Shown one piece after another: positions 1 to 6,494 of a stretch of 6,494 bases of DNA. The notes under the pieces are model-generated. The model was not told where the DNA came from and made no database searches. It saw only the letters and a list, made by a program, of their open reading frames with translations. A program made the translations under genes and the position numbers. How positions within the stretch are numbered: position 1 is the stretch's first letter; each line of letters begins with the position of its first letter. The DNA comes from Candidatus Auribacterota bacterium (lineage in GTDB: Bacteria; Auribacterota; UBA6266): assembly GCA_023136205.1 (NCBI GenBank), contig JAGLRQ010000055.1, forward strand, positions 1-6,494, given 5' to 3'.

Positions 1-85
1 GGATTTAGATATTAGGGTTTCGGATTTTAGTTTGTGTGTAGTAAGAAATTTAATAAAAGTCATTATTAATTACGGGAAGAAATAA

Positions 86-877
86 ATGAGAAACTTTTTG
101 GGTAGTCTTGGCAAACCAACTTTAATTTTTTTCAGGCATCTTGGAAGCATCTGGAAGATTTTTATGCAGACGCTTTACTGGATTTTTATAGCGCCTTTTA
201 AAGGCCAGATGCTGAAGCCGGGTGCGGTTTTTGCTCAGATGAATCTGATAGGCGTCGGGTCTGTTCCGATTGTGGCCCTTGTAAATTTTTTCTTCGGAAT
301 TACGCTGGCAATGCTCACATCTTACCAGTTGAAGCAGGTAGGAACCCAGGAGCTTATGGCCGGGCTTGTCGGGGTTTCATTTACAAGGGAGTTAGGCCCT
401 TTCCTGGCCGCGGTGGTTGTAGCTTCAAGAGTGGGGTCTGCTATAACTGCGGAAATAGGCACAATGACTGTATCCGAAGAGGTTGATGCCCTTGAAACCA
501 TGGCATTGAAGCCTGTAAGGTTTCTGGTGGTTCCCAGACTGCTTGCCCTGGTTATCATGCTGCCCTGCCTGACTATTGTTGCTAACTGTGTAGGGATGTT
601 GGGCGGATATGTCATAGGCCGTTTTAATTTGCATCTGAATTCAGCTTATTATCTTAAGCTTACGTTTGATTATCTGGTTCTTAAAGATATCGGTACGGGG
701 CTGCTGAAAAGCTTTGCCTTTGCGATTGTTATAGCCATGATAGGGTGCTATCAGGGGCTTACCGTTAGCGGCGGTTCCGCTGGGGTTGGAATTTCCACCA
801 CTAAGTCAGTTGTTCAATCAATTATGTTTATAATTATAATAGATTGTTTGTTTAACGCCTGGTTTTATTTTGTTTAG
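86..877 (+). CDS. mlaE: ABC transporter permease, MlaE/YrbE (phospholipid/lipid-trafficking) family
   Basis: The 263-aa ORF is polytopic and hydrophobic. It carries the family core 'FTRELGPFLAAVVVASRVGSAITAEIGTMTVSEEVDALETMALKPVRFLVVPRLLA', which closely matches the conserved MlaE block (RELGPvltAl..aGR.GSa.aAElGsM.vtEqiDALe.mg..P...LV.PR). A GGGAAG Shine-Dalgarno-like element lies at 74-79. The stop is 8 nt before the next gene. Confidence 0.9.
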   Translation: MRNFLGSLGKPTLIFFRHLGSIWKIFMQTLYWIFIAPFKGQMLKPGAVFAQMNLIGVGSVPIVALVNFFFGITLAMLTSYQLKQVGTQELMAGLVGVSFTRELGPFLAAVVVASRVGSAITAEIGTMTVSEEVDALETMALKPVRFLVVPRLLALVIMLPCLTIVANCVGMLGGYVIGRFNLHLNSAYYLKLTFDYLVLKDIGTGLLKSFAFAIVIAMIGCYQGLTVSGGSAGVGISTTKSVVQSIMFIIIIDCLFNAWFYFV

Positions 878-885
878 GGAAAAAA

Positions 886-1683
886 ATGTCAATAATAGAA
901 GTAAAAAATCTGGTTAAGATATACGATAATCGCCGGGTACTTGATGGTATTAACCTCAAGATAGAAAAGGGTGAAACCATGGTGATTATGGGGGGGAGCG
1001 GTTGCGGCAAGAGTACGCTGCTCAAAATATTGATCGGACAGCTTAAACCGGATGATGGACAAGTTTATATTGATGAAGATGAGATTATCCATATGACTGA
1101 CAGAGAGCTTGATGTGGTCAGGCGTAAATTCGGTATGTTGTACCAGGGGGGAGCTCTTTTAAACTCTCTAACACTTGCCGAAAATGTAGCTTTACCGCTT
1201 AAGGAACATACCAAACTGGATAAACGCATAATTGATATAATAGTTAAGATGAAACTTGCGCAGGTAGGGCTTGTTGGTTTTGAAGATAAAATGCCTGCGG
1301 AGATAAGCGGAGGCATGAAAAAAAGAGCGGCTCTTGCCCGCGCTATAGCTCTTGACCCCCACATAGTCTTTTATGATGAGCCTGGTGCCGGCCTTGACCC
1401 CATTGTTGCCGCCGTTATTGACAAGCTTATTATGGATTTAAGCAAAAAGCTCGGCATGACATCTGTGGTGGTAACTCATGAAATGCAAAGCGCGTTCAGG
1501 ATTGCCGATAAAATGGCTGTTTTATTCAAAGGCAGGGTAATTGAGCTTGGTACCCCCGATCAGATTAAGAATTCAAACAACCCCTATGTTCAGCAGTTTG
1601 TAACAGGTTCATTAGAGGCAGCCTCTATTTCCGCGAAAGATTCCACAGAGGAGTACATAAAAAGCCTTGTTGAAGGAACATAA
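886..1683 (+). CDS. mlaF: ABC transporter ATP-binding protein, MlaF family
   Basis: Motifs present are Walker A 'GGSGCGKST', Q-loop 'MLYQGGALLNSLTLAENVALPLKEHT' (MlaF-like), signature 'ISGGMKKRAALARAIA', Walker B 'IVFYDEPGAGLDP' and H-loop 'VVVTHEM'. It sits immediately downstream of the MlaE-like permease. Confidence 0.93.
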   Translation: MSIIEVKNLVKIYDNRRVLDGINLKIEKGETMVIMGGSGCGKSTLLKILIGQLKPDDGQVYIDEDEIIHMTDRELDVVRRKFGMLYQGGALLNSLTLAENVALPLKEHTKLDKRIIDIIVKMKLAQVGLVGFEDKMPAEISGGMKKRAALARAIALDPHIVFYDEPGAGLDPIVAAVIDKLIMDLSKKLGMTSVVVTHEMQSAFRIADKMAVLFKGRVIELGTPDQIKNSNNPYVQQFVTGSLEAASISAKDSTEEYIKSLVEGT

Positions 1684-1689
1684 TCTTTT

Positions 1690-2988
1690 ATGAAAGTAAC
1701 CCAAATTACCGCAGACGAAAAAATCAGGCACTTTCGCAGGATAATTATAGTTGAAAAATATATAATGTTTCCTGCCAAATTTCTTATGATACTGATCCTG
1801 GCCTTTTTTTTATGGTCGGTGAGAGAAGCCCATGAATTAAAGTTCGCTTTCCATAGATATCAGTTCTGGATGTATGTTCTTGGCAACCTTTTTTTTATGA
1901 TTGTCCTTATAAAAATCGGGCAGAGAAAATTTAATTTTAAAGCAGTTCAGGTTTCCGCTTTTTTTCTTTCTATAATTGATAATTTGTTTTTAAGTTTTTT
2001 AATCTATTTTACAACGGGCCTTGAAAGCGAGTTTTACTGGCTGTACTGCGGGCTTATAATACGTAACGCGGTTGATTTTCCCCGCATAAGAACGCAGTCA
2101 ATGATAAACCTTAGTTTTATACTTTTTTATATTATTGCTATTTATTCGCACGATCAGACCGCGGCTTTTCTGTCAAACCAGATTTTCTGGCTTAAAGTGT
2201 CTGTTCTTATTCTTGTAAGCGTTTGCTGCTGGGGCATATATACTATTTTGGTTTACCAGAGGAGGAGGGGCGAGGAATTCCAGGAGATGACTGTCAGGTC
2301 GGAAAAGCTTTCGTTTGCGGCAAAGCTTGCCGCGAGCATTGCCCATGAGCTGAAAAACCCTCTTGGAATAATTATGAATGCCGCGTATCTGCTGGAGAAT
2401 TCTCCTGAAGTATCTTCTGATTTGACAAAAAAACAGATTGGAGTTATAAAGCGTGAGACCATGCGGTCCGATAGGATAATCAGCGACTTGTTGAATTATT
2501 CCCGCCTTTCTGAAGGAAAGATTGAAAAAGTGAATATTAATTCGTGTATAGATGAGGTAATTGAAAGCCTGAATCCGGAAATATTCCTTGAAAATGTTAC
2601 AATCATAAGAAACTACAGGAAGGATATTCCGTCTATCTATTTTGATGTTTTGCAGATGAGGCAGATTATAACCAATATAGTTACAAATGCGAAACAGTCT
2701 ATGCCGGATGGAGGGGCTTTGAGGATAAAAACTGATTATTTTTCTCCGCCGGACAGAATTGTTATATCTTTTAAAGATACCGGCAAAGGGATAGATAAAG
2801 ATTTAAAAGACAAGGTTTTTGATCCTTTTGTGACAACAAAGTCGAAGGGAACCGGGCTTGGGCTGGCTATTGTTAAATCCATAGTTGAGACATATAACGG
2901 AGAAATATCTTTGCAAAGCAGTAAGAAAGGTACGAAAATGATTGTTACTCTTCCAATAAGGACGGTTTTCAAAAATGGCAAAAAATAA
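1690..2988 (+). CDS. Membrane-embedded sensor histidine kinase with about 6 TM helices, HisKA and HATPase_c; no PAS or HAMP recognised
   Basis: Residues ~27-189 form six hydrophobic segments joined by very short loops. The catalytic boxes are H-box 'SIAHELKNPLG' (His219), N-box 'IITNIVTNAKQSM', G1 'FKDTGKGI', F-box 'VFDPFVTTK' and G2 'GTGLGLAIV'. The start codon is uncertain: ATG 1690 or the in-frame ATG at 1765, and neither has a good SD. The 3' end overlaps the regulator gene by 14 nt. Confidence 0.9.
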   Translation: MKVTQITADEKIRHFRRIIIVEKYIMFPAKFLMILILAFFLWSVREAHELKFAFHRYQFWMYVLGNLFFMIVLIKIGQRKFNFKAVQVSAFFLSIIDNLFLSFLIYFTTGLESEFYWLYCGLIIRNAVDFPRIRTQSMINLSFILFYIIAIYSHDQTAAFLSNQIFWLKVSVLILVSVCCWGIYTILVYQRRRGEEFQEMTVRSEKLSFAAKLAASIAHELKNPLGIIMNAAYLLENSPEVSSDLTKKQIGVIKRETMRSDRIISDLLNYSRLSEGKIEKVNINSCIDEVIESLNPEIFLENVTIIRNYRKDIPSIYFDVLQMRQIITNIVTNAKQSMPDGGALRIKTDYFSPPDRIVISFKDTGKGIDKDLKDKVFDPFVTTKSKGTGLGLAIVKSIVETYNGEISLQSSKKGTKMIVTLPIRTVFKNGKK

Positions 2989-4378
2989 TATCTTAAACAG
3001 CAAGATAATGATTGTTGATGATGAAAAAGGTATGCTTGAAACCCTTTGCGTTATCTTAAGGAAGAACGGATACAGTGTCGTAACCGCGCTCAGCGCTGAG
3101 CAGGCGCTTTCAATTTGTGATAATGAAAAATTTAATCTCATAGTTACTGACGCGAAGATGAAGGGAATTGACGGATTTGAATTTATGAATATGGTGAAAA
3201 AGGATTTTCCTGAGACCGCGTTTATAATGATTACCGCTTACGCGACTCCCAAACTTGCCGTAAAGGCGATAAAAGATGGAGCGTTTGAGTATATATCAAA
3301 ACCGTTTGATCCGGAGGAGTTTTTGATAATCGTAAAACGAGGCCTTGAGCATAACAGGCTAATTTTGGAAAATAAAAGGCTTGTGGGAGAGCTGTCGAAT
3401 GAAACAGGGCTCAGGGGAGTTGTGGGGAACTCAGGGCGGATGCGGGAAATTTGCAAACTGATTTATGTAGTTGCTCCTACATCTTCACCGGTTCTTATAG
3501 AAGGCGAGGACGGCACGGGTAAGGAACTTATAGCGCGGGCACTGCATTTTCACAGCGCGAGAGGGGGCAATCCTTTCTTCAGCGTGAACTGCGCGGGTGT
3601 TTCGGATAAAGATCTTGAAATTGAGTTATTTGGCTATGAGAAGGGAGCCGTATCCGCCCCTTTGGGATCAAAAAAGTCCTGTTTTGAGGTTGCTCAAAGT
3701 GGAACACTGTATATTAATGAAGTCGGTGATATTCCGGCCGGGCTTCAGAAAAAGCTGTTGAATGTTCTTAAATACCAAAAGTGCGTCAGAAACGGAGGCA
3801 GTAAAGAGATAAAAGTTGATGTCAGAGTTGTTGCCGCGACAACCAGGGATCTGGAAAAGGAAGTGGAGAAAGGCAGGTGCAGTGAAGGCCTTTTCTACCG
3901 GCTTAATGTTATAAATATTAAAATCCCTCCTTTAAGAGAACGGCAGGAGGATATGCCTCTTTTAATGGATTATTTTTTAAAGAAATATGCTGTTCTTACG
4001 GGTAAGATTATTAATGGTTTTGAGCCTCCTGTAAAGGAAGTGTTTGTTAAATATAGTTGGCCCGGAAATGTTTCAGAACTGGAGAATGTTATTGAAAAAG
4101 CGGTCGTCCTTGAGAAGTCGAATAAGATAGGTTTACAAAGCATCCCCGAAGGAATTATAAAGCCGGGGAAAAGACGAGTAAAAGAAGAAGCGCCCGCGGA
4201 ACTTCCGGAATCGGGGATTGATTATCAGGAAGAGGTCTCGAATTATGAGGAAGGGCTGATCAAACTTGCGATAAAGAGGTCGGAAGGTAATGTCGCTAAA
4301 GCCGCGAAAATTCTCAAATTAAGCAGGCACGCGCTTCGTTATCAGATGCAGAAATTGGGCATGTTATTGAAGAAATAG
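2975..4378 (+). CDS. NtrC-family response regulator (receiver + sigma54-activator-type AAA+ + Fis-type HTH) with atypical AAA+ motifs
   Basis: The receiver has 'IMIVDDE', acceptor Asp in 'LIVTDAKM' (D59), 'MITAY' and 'ISKPF'. The AAA+ domain has Walker A 'GEDGTGKE', 'VDVRVVAAT', 'YRLNV', 'PPLRERQEDM' and 'WPGNVSELEN'. The C-terminal HTH is 'GNVAKAAKILKLSRHALRYQMQKLG'. The GAFTGA, Walker B, FRxD and sensor-II positions deviate from consensus (see findings). Confidence 0.9.
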   Translation: MAKNNILNSKIMIVDDEKGMLETLCVILRKNGYSVVTALSAEQALSICDNEKFNLIVTDAKMKGIDGFEFMNMVKKDFPETAFIMITAYATPKLAVKAIKDGAFEYISKPFDPEEFLIIVKRGLEHNRLILENKRLVGELSNETGLRGVVGNSGRMREICKLIYVVAPTSSPVLIEGEDGTGKELIARALHFHSARGGNPFFSVNCAGVSDKDLEIELFGYEKGAVSAPLGSKKSCFEVAQSGTLYINEVGDIPAGLQKKLLNVLKYQKCVRNGGSKEIKVDVRVVAATTRDLEKEVEKGRCSEGLFYRLNVINIKIPPLRERQEDMPLLMDYFLKKYAVLTGKIINGFEPPVKEVFVKYSWPGNVSELENVIEKAVVLEKSNKIGLQSIPEGIIKPGKRRVKEEAPAELPESGIDYQEEVSNYEEGLIKLAIKRSEGNVAKAAKILKLSRHALRYQMQKLGMLLKK

Positions 4379-4387
4379 GTTTATGCA

Positions 4388-4397
4388 ACAGGCCTGT
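4388..4397. promoter_or_regulatory. Perfect 10-bp palindrome ACAGGCCTGT just after the regulator stop codon; possible operator
   Basis: The sequence is self-complementary as read directly. It has no loop, so it is not a hairpin terminator. It lies ~130 nt upstream of the pilin-like start. A 10-bp palindrome can occur by chance. Confidence 0.15.
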
Positions 4398-4512
4398 GGG
4401 TTGGATGCGTCATTTTCACGCAGTACCCCTATTGAATTAGTTGATTAAATATGGTTTACTGTAGGTGTAGGTGGAAGAGATAAATCTATAAAAATCGTAA
4501 AAAAAAAAGGAA

Positions 4513-4518
4513 AGGAGG
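4513..4518 (+). promoter_or_regulatory. Shine-Dalgarno site (AGGAGG) of the pilin-like gene
   Basis: AAAGGAGGT lies at 4511-4519, with an 8-nt spacer to the ATG at 4527. It is the strongest RBS in the window. Confidence 0.75.
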
Positions 4519-4526
4519 TAGTTAAC

Positions 4527-5045
4527 ATGAAGAGAATGAAGGGTTTTACCCTGATTGAACTTCTGGTTGTTATCGCAATTATAGCTATTCTTGCCGGAAT
4601 GCTTTTGCCCGCGTTAGGCAGAGCAAGAGAACAAGCCAGAAGAGTCAACTGTCTGTCGAACGTAAAACAGCTGGGAACATCAATGCACATGTACGCGCAG
4701 GATTTTGGTGAGGATTTTGTAAATTATGGCGCTTACGCGGCAGGGACTAATTCACTTGTGCCTTTGTATTCGTATGCGACAAGCTGGCGCGTTTTTGTAT
4801 GTCCCAGCACAACGGATGCTATTTCGAATACGGCTTCTGGGTTAGCGATTGCTACTGGTGGTACCAACTCTATGAGTTATCGTTATATTTCCGGACTTAC
4901 TCAAGCAGATGATGCTGATTGCGGCCTTATCTGGGGCGCGACTCCCGCGAATCACGACAACGATGGTATTAATTGTGTTTATATCGGCGGTGACGCGGCA
5001 TGGTGTCCATGGAGAACCGCAGAAACTACTACGAAGAAGCAATAA
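4527..5045 (+). CDS. Prepilin-type N-terminal cleavage/methylation domain protein (type IV pilin / T2SS pseudopilin-like; PVC-type DUF1559 / H-X9-DG-like class)
   Basis: The class III signal peptide is 'MKRMKG|[24 protein letters not shown]', with Gly at -1, Phe at +1 and Glu at +5. It is followed by '[26 protein letters not shown]', the conserved continuation seen in the large PVC-type pilin-like paralog families. The C-terminal '[18 protein letters not shown]' resembles a diverged H-X9-DG box. Confidence 0.88.
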
Positions 5046-5064
5046 TGCTCAGATTGATAAAAAA

Positions 5065-5099
5065 CGCGCCCGGATTTTATTTTCGGGTGCGTTTTTTTT
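5065..5099 (+). terminator. Rho-independent terminator of the pilin-like gene
   Basis: The stem 5065-5074 (CGCGCCCGGA) pairs with 5082-5091 (TTCGGGTGCG), giving 10 bp including 2 G-U pairs. The loop is 7 nt (TTTTATT) and a T8 run follows at 5092-5099. An A-run precedes the stem (5057-5064), so it could act in both directions. Confidence 0.85.
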
Positions 5100-5252
5100 A
5101 TAATATAAAGAGAATTGAAATTGGACGCAGACTATAGTCCTCAGTGATTTGTTTTGCGAAGCGAAACAGCAGGGGGTTAACTCAGATTTTCAGGATTTTA
5201 AAAAGTGTGAGAAAGGAGATGGTGGAGATAAAAAATAATTACACAAAAACTA

Positions 5253-5281
5253 TTCACAAGATGTTATATACAAGATACTAT
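5253..5281 (+). promoter_or_regulatory. Candidate sigma70-type promoter (TTCACA-N17-TACTAT) for the downstream O-antigen-ligase-like gene
   Basis: The hexamers and spacing were read directly. The region is very AT-rich, so chance matches are likely. Confidence 0.2.
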
Positions 5282-5334
5282 TATACGATATATGAATTTA
5301 AACCCTGACACCCAAAACCAGGTACCTGATACCC

Positions 5335-6494
5335 ATGATCTATAACCTAAATGCGGTTAAGTTGAAAATTAGCTTGAATATAACATTTATTTTTCTCCTG
5401 GCGCTATATATTTTTCTGTTTCCTTTTCTGGGGATTCCGGGGTTGATAAACCCTTTCATGGGGAAGTTATATATAGTCCAGATTATCCTCCTCTTTTTCA
5501 TAATATATTACCTCTGGAACCTCAGAAAAGGCAAGGAAGTATATCTTTTTGACAAAAACGATGTTTTTCTTCTGCTGTTTTTGTTTTACCTGGGATTGTG
5601 TGTTTTAACTTCAGATTTCGCGGGCTTTGCCCGCAGAGGCTGGGTTATTCACCTTTCACTTGTTCTGATTTATGCTTTTTCTAAGTATATTCTTGTGTCA
5701 AATCCTGATTTAAAGAGTTTTTTTGTTAAGCTTTTTGTTTATTCTTCGACCGTTTTTGCGGTGTATGGGCTGGTAATTGTGTTTTTTTACAGGCCGTGGA
5801 GATTAAAGATATTTTTTGGTAACACCCTCCTTCTTTCAAATATTTTTCTGGTCGCTTTACCTATCATTATAGTGATTATCGCGGAATATCTCAAAGAATG
5901 GAAGAAAAACAGGGTAATGGTTTCTTTATGGTGTCTTGCGTTCCTGGCTAACCTTCTGGCGCTTTACTTTACAAAATCAAAGACCGCCGTACTTATTTGC
6001 GGAGTCGCGATACTTCTTCCGATAAGTTTAATTTATAAGAAGTGGAGGAAATTGGCTATCCTGATTATTGTTGTTTTTGCTGTAATCGGGCTCAGTTTGG
6101 TTTTATTCCTCGAACAAAGTGGAGGAAATTCAGGGACAGCGGCAATAAGGTACCAGATTTACAGGGGTACATGCGCGCTTATCAAAGACAACCTGATTTT
6201 GGGAACCGGGCCGTATACTTATTTCCTGTCCTACCCCGAATATATTACGCCGGAGTATTTTAAGTTACCGCTTTCAGCGGATGTTACAAATCACGCGCAT
6301 AGCTATTTCCCTGAAATTATTGCAGAGTCCGGTTTGCCCGGATTCATATTGCTGATGATTTTTATAAGCTCTTTGCTGTATAAGCTGGGCAGGGAAGCAT
6401 TAAAACCCTCCCGGCATTCTTATATCGCGGCTGGTGTTTTTTCGGCTTTGGTGGTTACATATTTATATAATCTTTTTAACATAAACCAGAATGT
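5335..6494 (+). CDS. O-antigen ligase (Wzy_C) family polytopic membrane protein, 3'-truncated by the window edge; WaaL / Wzy / PglL / TfpO-like
   Basis: This ORF is not in the supplied track. Frame 1 is open from the stop at 5299-5301 to the end of the window, about 386 codons from ATG 5335. The translation is 'MIYNLNAVKLKISLNITFIFLLALYIF...' with many TM segments. It also has the family's hallmark periplasmic-loop region '...AAIRYQIYRGTCALIKDNLILGTGPYTYF...NHAHSYFPEIIAESGLPGFILL' (R..W/Y....P..G.G.G.F ... HAHN.yl..l.e.G..G). No SD precedes ATG 5335, so the start is uncertain (alternative TTG at 5362). Confidence 0.75.
   Translation, partial: MIYNLNAVKLKISLNITFIFLLALYIFLFPFLGIPGLINPFMGKLYIVQIILLFFIIYYLWNLRKGKEVYLFDKNDVFLLLFLFYLGLCVLTSDFAGFARRGWVIHLSLVLIYAFSKYILVSNPDLKSFFVKLFVYSSTVFAVYGLVIVFFYRPWRLKIFFGNTLLLSNIFLVALPIIIVIIAEYLKEWKKNRVMVSLWCLAFLANLLALYFTKSKTAVLICGVAILLPISLIYKKWRKLAILIIVVFAVIGLSLVLFLEQSGGNSGTAAIRYQIYRGTCALIKDNLILGTGPYTYFLSYPEYITPEYFKLPLSADVTNHAHSYFPEIIAESGLPGFILLMIFISSLLYKLGREALKPSRHSYIAAGVFSALVVTYLYNLFNINQN

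Follow-up and report, generated by a model that had tools for sequence, protein, structure and literature searches.

A PilR-like response regulator with a degenerate AAA+ domain in Candidatus Auribacterota: a probable sigma-54-independent activator beside a pilin-like gene

Atypical enhancer-binding proteins are homologs of sigma-54 activators that lack the GAFTGA motif and often carry non-consensus Walker motifs (PMC6158489). NtrC of Rhodobacter capsulatus and Caulobacter, NtrX, HupR, and TyrR/PhhR act at sigma-70-type promoters, and several of the atypical proteins are still phosphorylated on an aspartate by the cognate kinase (bioRxiv 10.1101/2023.06.06.543975; PMC6158489). In the Rhodobacter/Caulobacter NtrC, the L1 loop is deleted and the Walker B Asp is kept, this Asp being required in Caulobacter (bioRxiv 10.1101/2023.06.06.543975). 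VpsR is without GAFTGA, reads Asn-Asp in Walker B, shows no ATPase, and activates a sigma-70 promoter from a binding site at -31 to -52, i.e., immediately upstream of -35 (PMC6158489). In the pilin circuit of Pseudomonas, PilS, which has six membrane segments, senses pilin in the membrane, and PilR, an NtrC-type regulator dependent on sigma-54, activates pilA (PMC6058289). Here, we report an NtrC-type response regulator with a degenerate AAA+ domain, encoded between a sensor histidine kinase gene and a pilin-like gene on 6,494 nucleotides of a Candidatus Auribacterota bacterium (assembly GCA_023136205.1, contig JAGLRQ010000055.1, positions 1 to 6,494 of the forward strand; the whole of this stretch is called the window). 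We read it, with a probability of roughly 0.7, as an atypical protein that works without sigma-54, descends from a PilR-like enhancer-binding response regulator, and belongs to a circuit rewired to a sigma-70-type promoter. The gene and the domains of its product are as follows.

2975 to 4378, + strand: NtrC-type response regulator gene, AAA+ domain degenerate, 467 amino acids
Residues 11 to 119: receiver domain (Response_reg, PF00072; Pfam)
3149 to 3151, + strand: phospho-acceptor Asp59, invariant in clade alignments
Residues 150 to 315: Sigma54_activat AAA+ domain (PF00158; Pfam, E 2e-51)
Residues 321 to 401: AAA_lid_14 (PF25601; Pfam)
Residues 425 to 461: Fis-type helix-turn-helix (HTH), HTH_8 (PF02954; Pfam)

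The regulator matches NtrC1 (1NY5) at E 1e-80 and ZraR (1OJL) at E 8e-68; the NtrC1 alignment runs gapless over the AAA+ domain (residues 149-382), as a preliminary description of this DNA had proposed, and the ZraR alignment is gapless across 241 aligned residues. Because the match to the solved NtrC1 is both this strong and free of gaps, the AAA+ fold can be taken as settled. The assignment to a named family is less tight: the best NCBIfam match is AtoC with 402.8 bits against a curated cut-off of 714, all matches to the NCBIfam equivalogs (AtoC, NtrX, NtrC, ZraR, PilR-type, etc.) fall under their cut-offs, and no PilR-specific family model was matched in that comparison. Some homologs bear an automatic JGI 'PilR' label, which is no test of PilR orthology. 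The receiver pocket is complete (D15, D16, D59, T87, and K109 all present), and all 11 receiver columns with at least 95% conservation among canonical homologs are retained, in line with the intact receiver of the preliminary description.

The AAA+ domain was compared, column by column, with 255 other homologs of 400-560 amino acids collected from two database searches, and with six orthologs which together with the window regulator form a clade of seven sequences. The positions concerned are listed below.

3503 to 3526, + strand: Walker A, GEDGTGKE; Lys183 present, the conserved Ser replaced by Asp179
3644 to 3661, + strand: L1 loop, GAVSAP where the canonical loop is GAFTGA (NtrC1/ZraR alignments and 255-homolog columns)
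3701 to 3724, + strand: Walker B, GTLYINEV where the canonical box is GTLFLDEI; Asp replaced by Asn248 (3716 to 3718), Glu249 present
3842 to 3844, + strand: sensor-I Thr290, canonical Asn (AATN), from the column comparison
3881 to 3889, + strand: S303-E-G305, R-E-D in canonical proteins and in orthologs; strain-private
3899 to 3901, + strand: arginine finger Arg309, invariant in the clade and present in 254/255 others
4073 to 4075, + strand: sensor-II Ser367, canonical Arg; GNVSELEN lies under GNVRELKN

Four of these deviations, under GAFTGA, the Walker B Asp, the FRxD Arg, and the sensor-II Arg, had been called from the window alone, with correct nucleotide positions for GAVSAP and N248, and all four fall under the expected residues both in the NtrC1/ZraR alignments and against the 255 homologs. 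Since the canonical residues are near-universal in that sample, the substitutions go far beyond ordinary family variation. The Phe and Thr of GAFTGA, present in 252/255 and 250/255 of the other homologs, are both missing from all seven clade members; subclade B (defined below) has a 3-residue deletion and unrelated sequence in this loop, and the conserved Gly that follows loop L1 is lost as well (S235). The Walker B Asp, found in 254/255 others, is Asn in 7/7 clade members. The sensor-I position reads T/T/T/T/T/A/A across the clade (Asn in 233/255 others), the sensor-II position is S or L in 7/7 (Arg in 255/255 others), and the Walker A Ser position reads D/D/N/D/R/K/I (Ser or Thr in 254/255 others). 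What is kept is equally consistent: every clade member has the Walker A Lys, the Walker B Glu, the switch Asn205, and the arginine finger. An unbiased count over the 46 AAA+ columns with at least 95% conservation among canonical homologs gave 26 retained clade-wide, 13 lost in part of the clade, and seven lost in every member (F226, T227, A229, G235, L247, D248, and R367). A complete ATPase site is therefore not retained, i.e., Lys183, Glu249, and Arg309 are present and the Walker B Asp, sensor-I Asn, and sensor-II Arg are gone clade-wide; on account of these three losses, ATP hydrolysis has very probably been lost.

The FRxD change needs separate treatment. The FRxD Arg is present in 252/255 other homologs, and R303S together with D305G occurs only in the window and in its 99% identical twin P0001, through two single-base changes (AGA to AGT and GAC to GGC); the 93% and 89% orthologs read CRED. 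The arginine finger column, NtrC1 R299, which corresponds to PspF R168 (PMC7175178), aligns to R309 and not to R303. The view of the four changes as one selected set therefore does not hold: loss of GAFTGA, Asn248, and loss of the sensor-II Arg are fixed in 7/7, CSEG is private to this strain and P0001, and two clade-wide changes, T290 and D179, had been overlooked, as had the Gly lost at S235. Two unrelated degenerate homologs also appear among the 255, P0267 (GAFAGA, a Walker B of LFLNDV with the VpsR-like ND, and FYSL) and P0193 (GSLAGA and FSEE); from these two, independent loss of sigma-54/ATPase determinants would recur in about 1% of NtrC-type regulators.

The clade falls into two subclades, A with the window regulator, P0001 (99% identical), L007 (93%), and P0002 (89%), and B with P0003, P0004, and L023, which are 57-60% identical to the window regulator. 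All clade orthologs that can be placed are Candidatus Auribacterota; P0004 is annotated as Candidatus Aureabacteria/Auribacterota. Three metagenome-assembled genomes carry the clade, GCA_016933315.1 (JAFGBE01), JAQUNG01 (STD1_172), and CBDURG01 (SRR21487744_concoct_83), and the canonical comparators are GCA_030765365.1, GCA_964640155.1, and GCA_016196885.1. A metagenome scan with the clade alignment, for which generic receiver-domain patterns were chosen, returned no new members (best 45% identity), and in the representative library the clade is a single 50%-identity cluster that adds no diversity. The usual ranking, in which AAA+ is the most conserved domain, is reversed in the clade: between the subclades the receivers are 74-78% identical and the AAA+ cores 51-55%, and a set of 1026 canonical pairs whose receivers are 70-85% identical has a mean of 82.5% and a minimum of 71.8% in the AAA+ core. 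The ratio of nonsynonymous to synonymous substitution rates (dN/dS) is 0.09-0.23 for the AAA+ core, 0.02-0.04 for the receiver and HTH in subclade B, and 0.06-0.23 for the whole gene, and the reading frame is uninterrupted in every assembly carrying the regulator. The AAA+ core is thus under relaxed yet purifying selection; this pattern points to a domain that may have lost its catalytic constraint and kept a structural or binding role.

The second line of evidence comes from the DNA around the gene. Its neighbors and the intergenic elements in front of the pilin-like gene are as follows.

1690 to 2988, + strand: sensor histidine kinase gene (Pfam HisKA E 5e-13, HATPase_c E 6e-25)
4406 to 4422, + strand: 17-bp palindrome TGCGTCA-TTT-TCACGCA, predicted binding site of the regulator
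4432 to 4460, + strand: candidate sigma-70-type promoter, TTGAAT (4432 to 4437), 17-nt spacer ending TGG (4452 to 4454), TTTACT (4455 to 4460)
4527 to 5045, + strand: pilin-like gene (Pfam N_methyl E 2e-9, SBP_bac_10 E 7e-9; N_methyl plus DUF1559)

Kinase and regulator genes overlap by 14 nt. In a hydropathy scan, the kinase N-terminus shows five clear hydrophobic segments and a weaker sixth one (residues ~25-188), followed by the H-box His219 and then HATPase_c; full-length kinase orthologs, 39-61% identical, adjoin the regulator in all related loci. The pilin-like protein starts with a class III signal, MKRMKG|FTLIELLVV, and its orthologs come after the regulator in all related loci, the order kinase-regulator-pilin-like gene being kept in 10 loci. 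The pilin-like gene is the likely regulated target.

The window palindrome lies 9 nt 5' of TTGAAT, with the site centre ~53 bp upstream of the predicted start near 4467. The clade promoter set comprises eight promoters, i.e., those of six loci plus those of the second pilin-like genes of L001 and L005, and a common module is found in 8/8: the palindrome, 8-9 nt, TTGAAw, a 17-nt spacer ending TGG, and TyTAmT, with TTGCAT in place of TTGAAw as the first hexamer in L007. The palindrome is present as one copy at the same place in 6/6 clade loci, as TGCGTGA-TTT-TCACGCA or, in the window, as a one-mismatch form of it. Before the second pilin-like genes it reads TGCGTTA-TAA-TAACGCT, with a matching symmetric change in both arms (G to T, C to A); the module there (L001 14006-14022 and L005 13908-13924) is TGCGTTATAATAACGCT, 8 nt, TTGAAA, N17, and TTTACT. 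The second pilin-like gene of L005 is uncalled in the source annotation.

The GG-N10-GC element is present in 0/8 clade pilin-like promoters, and the ~74 kb of clade loci examined contain no intergenic -24/-12 element; the only three matches to the -24/-12 consensus with at most two mismatches are all intragenic, in the L006 and L007 regulator genes and in a downstream open reading frame of L007. Of the sigma-54-like matches, the one at L007 12356 was dismissed as it is inside a coding region. The tentative assignment to a sigma-70-type promoter, like the hexamer register, is drawn from this absence of -24/-12 together with the conserved spacing.

Four relatives have a fully canonical regulator (GAFTGA, LDE, FRxD, and [VI]REL), namely P0076, P0015, P0273, and P0275, and their loci all carry the kinase-regulator-pilin-like-Wzy_C/TPR cassette; the source of P0076 is Ca. 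Theseobacter exili, another Auribacterota lineage. The kinases of these canonical cassettes are 39-44% identical over the full length and the pilin-like proteins 40-53%. Before their pilin-like genes, a -24/-12 element, TGGyAy-N5-yTGCT with one or two mismatches to the consensus, was found in 5/5 canonical-locus cases, the first three being TGGCATGTATATTGCT; TGGTATACTTATTGCT; TGGTACAAGATATGCT, and the other two TGGCATGAAACCTGCT; TGGAATAAAACTTGCT. The promoter type of the pilin-like gene switches, then, between the canonical and the degenerate cassettes. In L169, the Ca. Theseobacter cassette, and in L170, palindrome-related dyads precede the predicted sigma-54 start by ~153 and ~155 bp, i.e., at enhancer distance, which suggests that the recognition site was retained and moved beside the -35 region.

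The clade is linked to the P0076 group by gene order, by the orthology of kinase and pilin-like proteins, and by a signature in Walker B: two residues before the Walker B Asp/Asn there is a Tyr (GT[IL]Y[LIM][DN]E) in both the degenerate clade and the pilin-linked canonical group, and a Phe at this position in the other canonical homologs compared.

3710 to 3712, + strand: Tyr246 of the window regulator, with the aligned Tyr in P0076, P0015, and P0271-P0276

This small signature supports a common ancestry of the two groups. By identity, the closest canonical proteins are P0005-P0011 (45-46% identical to the window regulator); these were left out of the promoter comparison because there is no pilin-like gene downstream. 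Two of their loci, L167 and L168 (P0011 and P0008, loop GSFTDA), have a YicC-rpoZ-flavoprotein-kinase-regulator row adjoining V-type ATPase genes, and the YicC plus flavoprotein context upstream is common to L167/L168 and the canonical pilin-linked L170-L172. Such a shared neighborhood hints at a possible older common location of the two-component system.

We propose the following mechanism. The multi-pass membrane kinase encoded upstream would phosphorylate Asp59, and phospho-Asp59 would control oligomerisation of the regulator and its binding to the palindrome. The phosphorylated regulator, as a dimer or higher oligomer, would bind 4406-4422 through its Fis-type HTH and activate the promoter TTGAAT-N17-TGG-TTTACT in front of the neighboring pilin-like gene, most likely through a contact with RNA polymerase beside the -35 region like the one that VpsR makes. 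In this model the AAA+ domain would no longer contact sigma-54; it is probably a nucleotide-binding, non-hydrolysing oligomerisation scaffold that is under selection, a role proposed because the Walker A Lys, Walker B Glu, switch Asn205, and arginine finger are retained. We infer from sequence patterns that the regulator binds the palindrome, that it activates rather than represses, that ATPase activity is lost and ATP binding retained, and where the exact hexamers lie. The idea of a phosphorylation-controlled DNA binder without sigma-54 remodelling and probably without ATP hydrolysis, raised in the preliminary description, is supported by the clade-fixed substitutions, which are under purifying selection, and by a target promoter without -24/-12. 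A wider scenario, which we rate slightly below even odds, is that one phylum holds both sides of a sigma-54-to-sigma-70 switch in a pilin-sensing two-component circuit, with the dyad kept and moved from ~-155 to ~-53, the -24/-12 element replaced, and the AAA+ motor turned into a non-catalytic, selected nucleotide- or ligand-binding oligomerisation module. Loss of rpoN in the clade lineage may have set off the switch.

Several points weigh against this reading. The six independent loci form two tight subclades and amount to ~2-3 independent observations. Neighbor-joining trees, whether of the full length or of receiver plus HTH only, left the sister canonical group unsettled. The -10 candidate, TTTACT/TTTAAT, departs from the usual A at its second base, and the built-in promoter scan was silent; the hexamer register, or the sigma factor itself, could be different from the one proposed. 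The alternative -10 registers TATGGT, TAATTA/TACTGT, and GATAAA were tried, and none gives a 16-18 nt spacer in all loci. Where 0.2 hits would be expected in 117 kb, the palindrome model gave nine, all before pilin-like genes (the clade promoters plus one L170 site), but it was fitted to the same sites and this test of specificity is partly circular.

The most probable of the alternatives is that the regulator, under control of phosphorylation, represses or passively binds DNA, as NtrX does or TyrR when it works as a repressor; on the palindrome it would hinder a promoter whose true elements overlap the site or lie upstream of it. NtrX, itself an atypical enhancer-binding protein, does repress, and the hexamers proposed here are predicted only, with an imperfect -10 candidate. 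However, the palindrome stands 8-9 nt 5' of the conserved TTGAAw block in all eight promoters, which is the geometry of a VpsR-like activator; a weak -10 candidate suits an activator-dependent promoter; and the canonical orthologs are activators by construction. We consider repression unlikely.

A repurposed AAA+ domain is a good deal less probable. It could be a small-ligand sensor, or it could form mixed rings with a canonical enhancer-binding protein from another locus and poison or tune that protein, and the purifying selection that persists despite the catalytic losses, the varying Walker A Ser position (D/N/R/K/I), the binding of cyclic di-GMP (c-di-GMP) by FleQ and VpsR, and the CHASE2-cyclase and partner-switching module upstream in related loci would all agree with such a role. 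On the other hand, the locus encodes no second enhancer-binding protein, no ligand-binding motif was identified, and a DNA site plus a promoter already explains the data.

Still lower stands the possibility that the regulator remains sigma-54-dependent elsewhere in the genome, working with a divergent L1 loop and a residual ATPase. The Walker A Lys, Walker B Glu, arginine finger, and switch Asn are kept, and the promoters concerned would lie outside the examined loci; against this, the F and T of GAFTGA are gone in all members with the subclade B loop deleted and randomised, three catalytic-site residues are lost clade-wide, the ~74 kb of clade loci hold no intergenic -24/-12, and no canonical pair has an AAA+ core that evolves nearly as fast. 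Finally, an assembly error or a decaying pseudogene, suggested by the strain-private S303/G305 pair, which could reflect relaxed constraint, is effectively refuted by the same clade sequences in independent assemblies (P0001 with 10 member sequences, L006, L007, L001-L005, and L023), by intact frames and a whole-gene dN/dS of 0.06-0.23, and by the very strong conservation of receiver and HTH.

The remaining features of the window are these.

86 to 877, + strand: MlaE permease gene, first of a tight same-strand gene row
886 to 1683, + strand: ATP-binding cassette (ABC) ATPase gene, after the MlaE permease gene
5059 to 5102, + strand: terminator-like hairpin, AAAAAACGCGCCCG...CGGGTGCGTTTTTTTT, an inverted repeat of 14 nt, 93% complementary, followed by a T run
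5335 to 6494, + strand: O-antigen-ligase-like Wzy_C membrane protein gene, 3' of the hairpin terminator, running off the window end

The kinase-regulator pair thus continues a gene row that opens with MlaE and an MlaF-like ABC ATPase (window 86-1683). The full gene order of the clade is CHASE2-cyclase, GAF-SpoIIE phosphatase, RsbW-like kinase, STAS protein, MlaE, ABC ATPase, kinase, regulator, pilin-like gene, and Wzy_C/TPR, and in subclade B loci the last two of these, the pilin-like gene and Wzy_C/TPR, occur twice. The STAS, RsbW-like, GAF-SpoIIE, and CHASE2-cyclase genes precede the MlaE row at L001 3036-8715 and L005 2938-8616; a partner-switching module immediately 5' of MlaEF is an unusual arrangement, and the STAS protein of the related loci might be an MlaB-like partner of the ABC ATPase. 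In the canonical positional orthologs, pyrF, gmk, and coaBC are upstream in place of the partner-switching/Mla row.

On the other side of the pilin-like gene, the hairpin at 5059-5102 is intrinsic-terminator-like and ends the pilin-like transcription unit. A Wzy_C membrane protein with TPR repeats comes after every pilin-like gene (10/10 loci; in L001 the two genes are at 12132-13949 and 14728-16815), and this pairing resembles pilin O-glycosylation enzymes of the PilO/TfpO type, which suggests that the pilin-like protein is glycosylated. The gap between the pilin-like and Wzy_C genes is 289 nt in the window (5046-5334) and only ~100 nt in L001, L005, L006, and L007; an Rfam search matched no family, this gap included.

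Atypical sigma-54-independent enhancer-binding proteins are an established category, and the Asp-to-Asn change in Walker B is already found in VpsR; the locus reveals no new mechanism. What is new here is the Auribacterota lineage, the PilR-like context, and an activator state that is cleanly paired with the promoter type across orthologous cassettes. Between the two modes of bacterial transcription initiation, sigma-54 activators that left sigma-54 form the only natural bridge, and because the cassettes exist in both states, with at least one canonical comparator being itself Auribacterota, the order and the minimal set of changes can be read from the sequence. If our reading is true, this would be a stepwise natural series from enhancer-dependent promoters to ordinary activator-dependent promoters. 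In practical terms, the annotation of this clade as 'sigma-54-dependent Fis family transcriptional regulator' is probably wrong, which is a warning to annotators.

Compared with the systems named at the outset, the window regulator shares the class feature of atypical enhancer-binding proteins, a homologous AAA+ domain without GAFTGA. Its best matches among solved structures are NtrC1 of Aquifex aeolicus (1NY5) and ZraR (1OJL), which hold every catalytic and sigma-54-contact residue that it is missing, and its coiled-coil linker between receiver and AAA+ resembles that of NtrC1/DctD. By gene context, the circuit looks like PilS-PilR: in Pseudomonas, Geobacter, Myxococcus, and Kingella a pilin-type gene likewise has a multi-pass membrane kinase and an NtrC-type regulator encoded beside it. 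However, no PAS domain is present in the window kinase, the pilin-like protein is a pseudopilin of the DUF1559 type, and PilR is strictly sigma-54-dependent, whereas the degenerate clade has neither the sigma-54 determinants nor a -24/-12 element; the PilR-type sigma-54 pilin promoter is seen only in the canonical positional orthologs and not in the degenerate clade.

Among the atypical proteins, a degenerate regulator beside a functional kinase had been called unusual; this was overstated, as R. capsulatus/Caulobacter NtrC, NtrX, and HupR are established precedents, and VpsR carries the Walker B Asn as well. NtrX of Brucella (PDB 5M7N) matches the window regulator at E 5e-76. Relative to the Rhodobacter/Caulobacter NtrC, the clade has its loop substituted (subclade A) or three residues shorter (subclade B), and it has also lost the Walker B Asp and sensors I and II; the window regulator belongs to another orthologous group, phylum, and regulon than the NtrC, NtrX, HupR, and TyrR/PhhR cases. 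VpsR of Vibrio cholerae (PDB 7V2B) matches at E 8e-40 and has the same receiver-AAA+-HTH layout; both proteins have lost GAFTGA and both have Asn for the Walker B Asp, but VpsR also changes the Walker B Glu (ND), which the window regulator keeps (NE). VpsR needs c-di-GMP and not phosphorylation, whereas the window regulator has a complete phospho-acceptor pocket and an adjoining kinase; and the targets of VpsR are biofilm polysaccharide genes, whereas the likely target here is a pilin-like gene.

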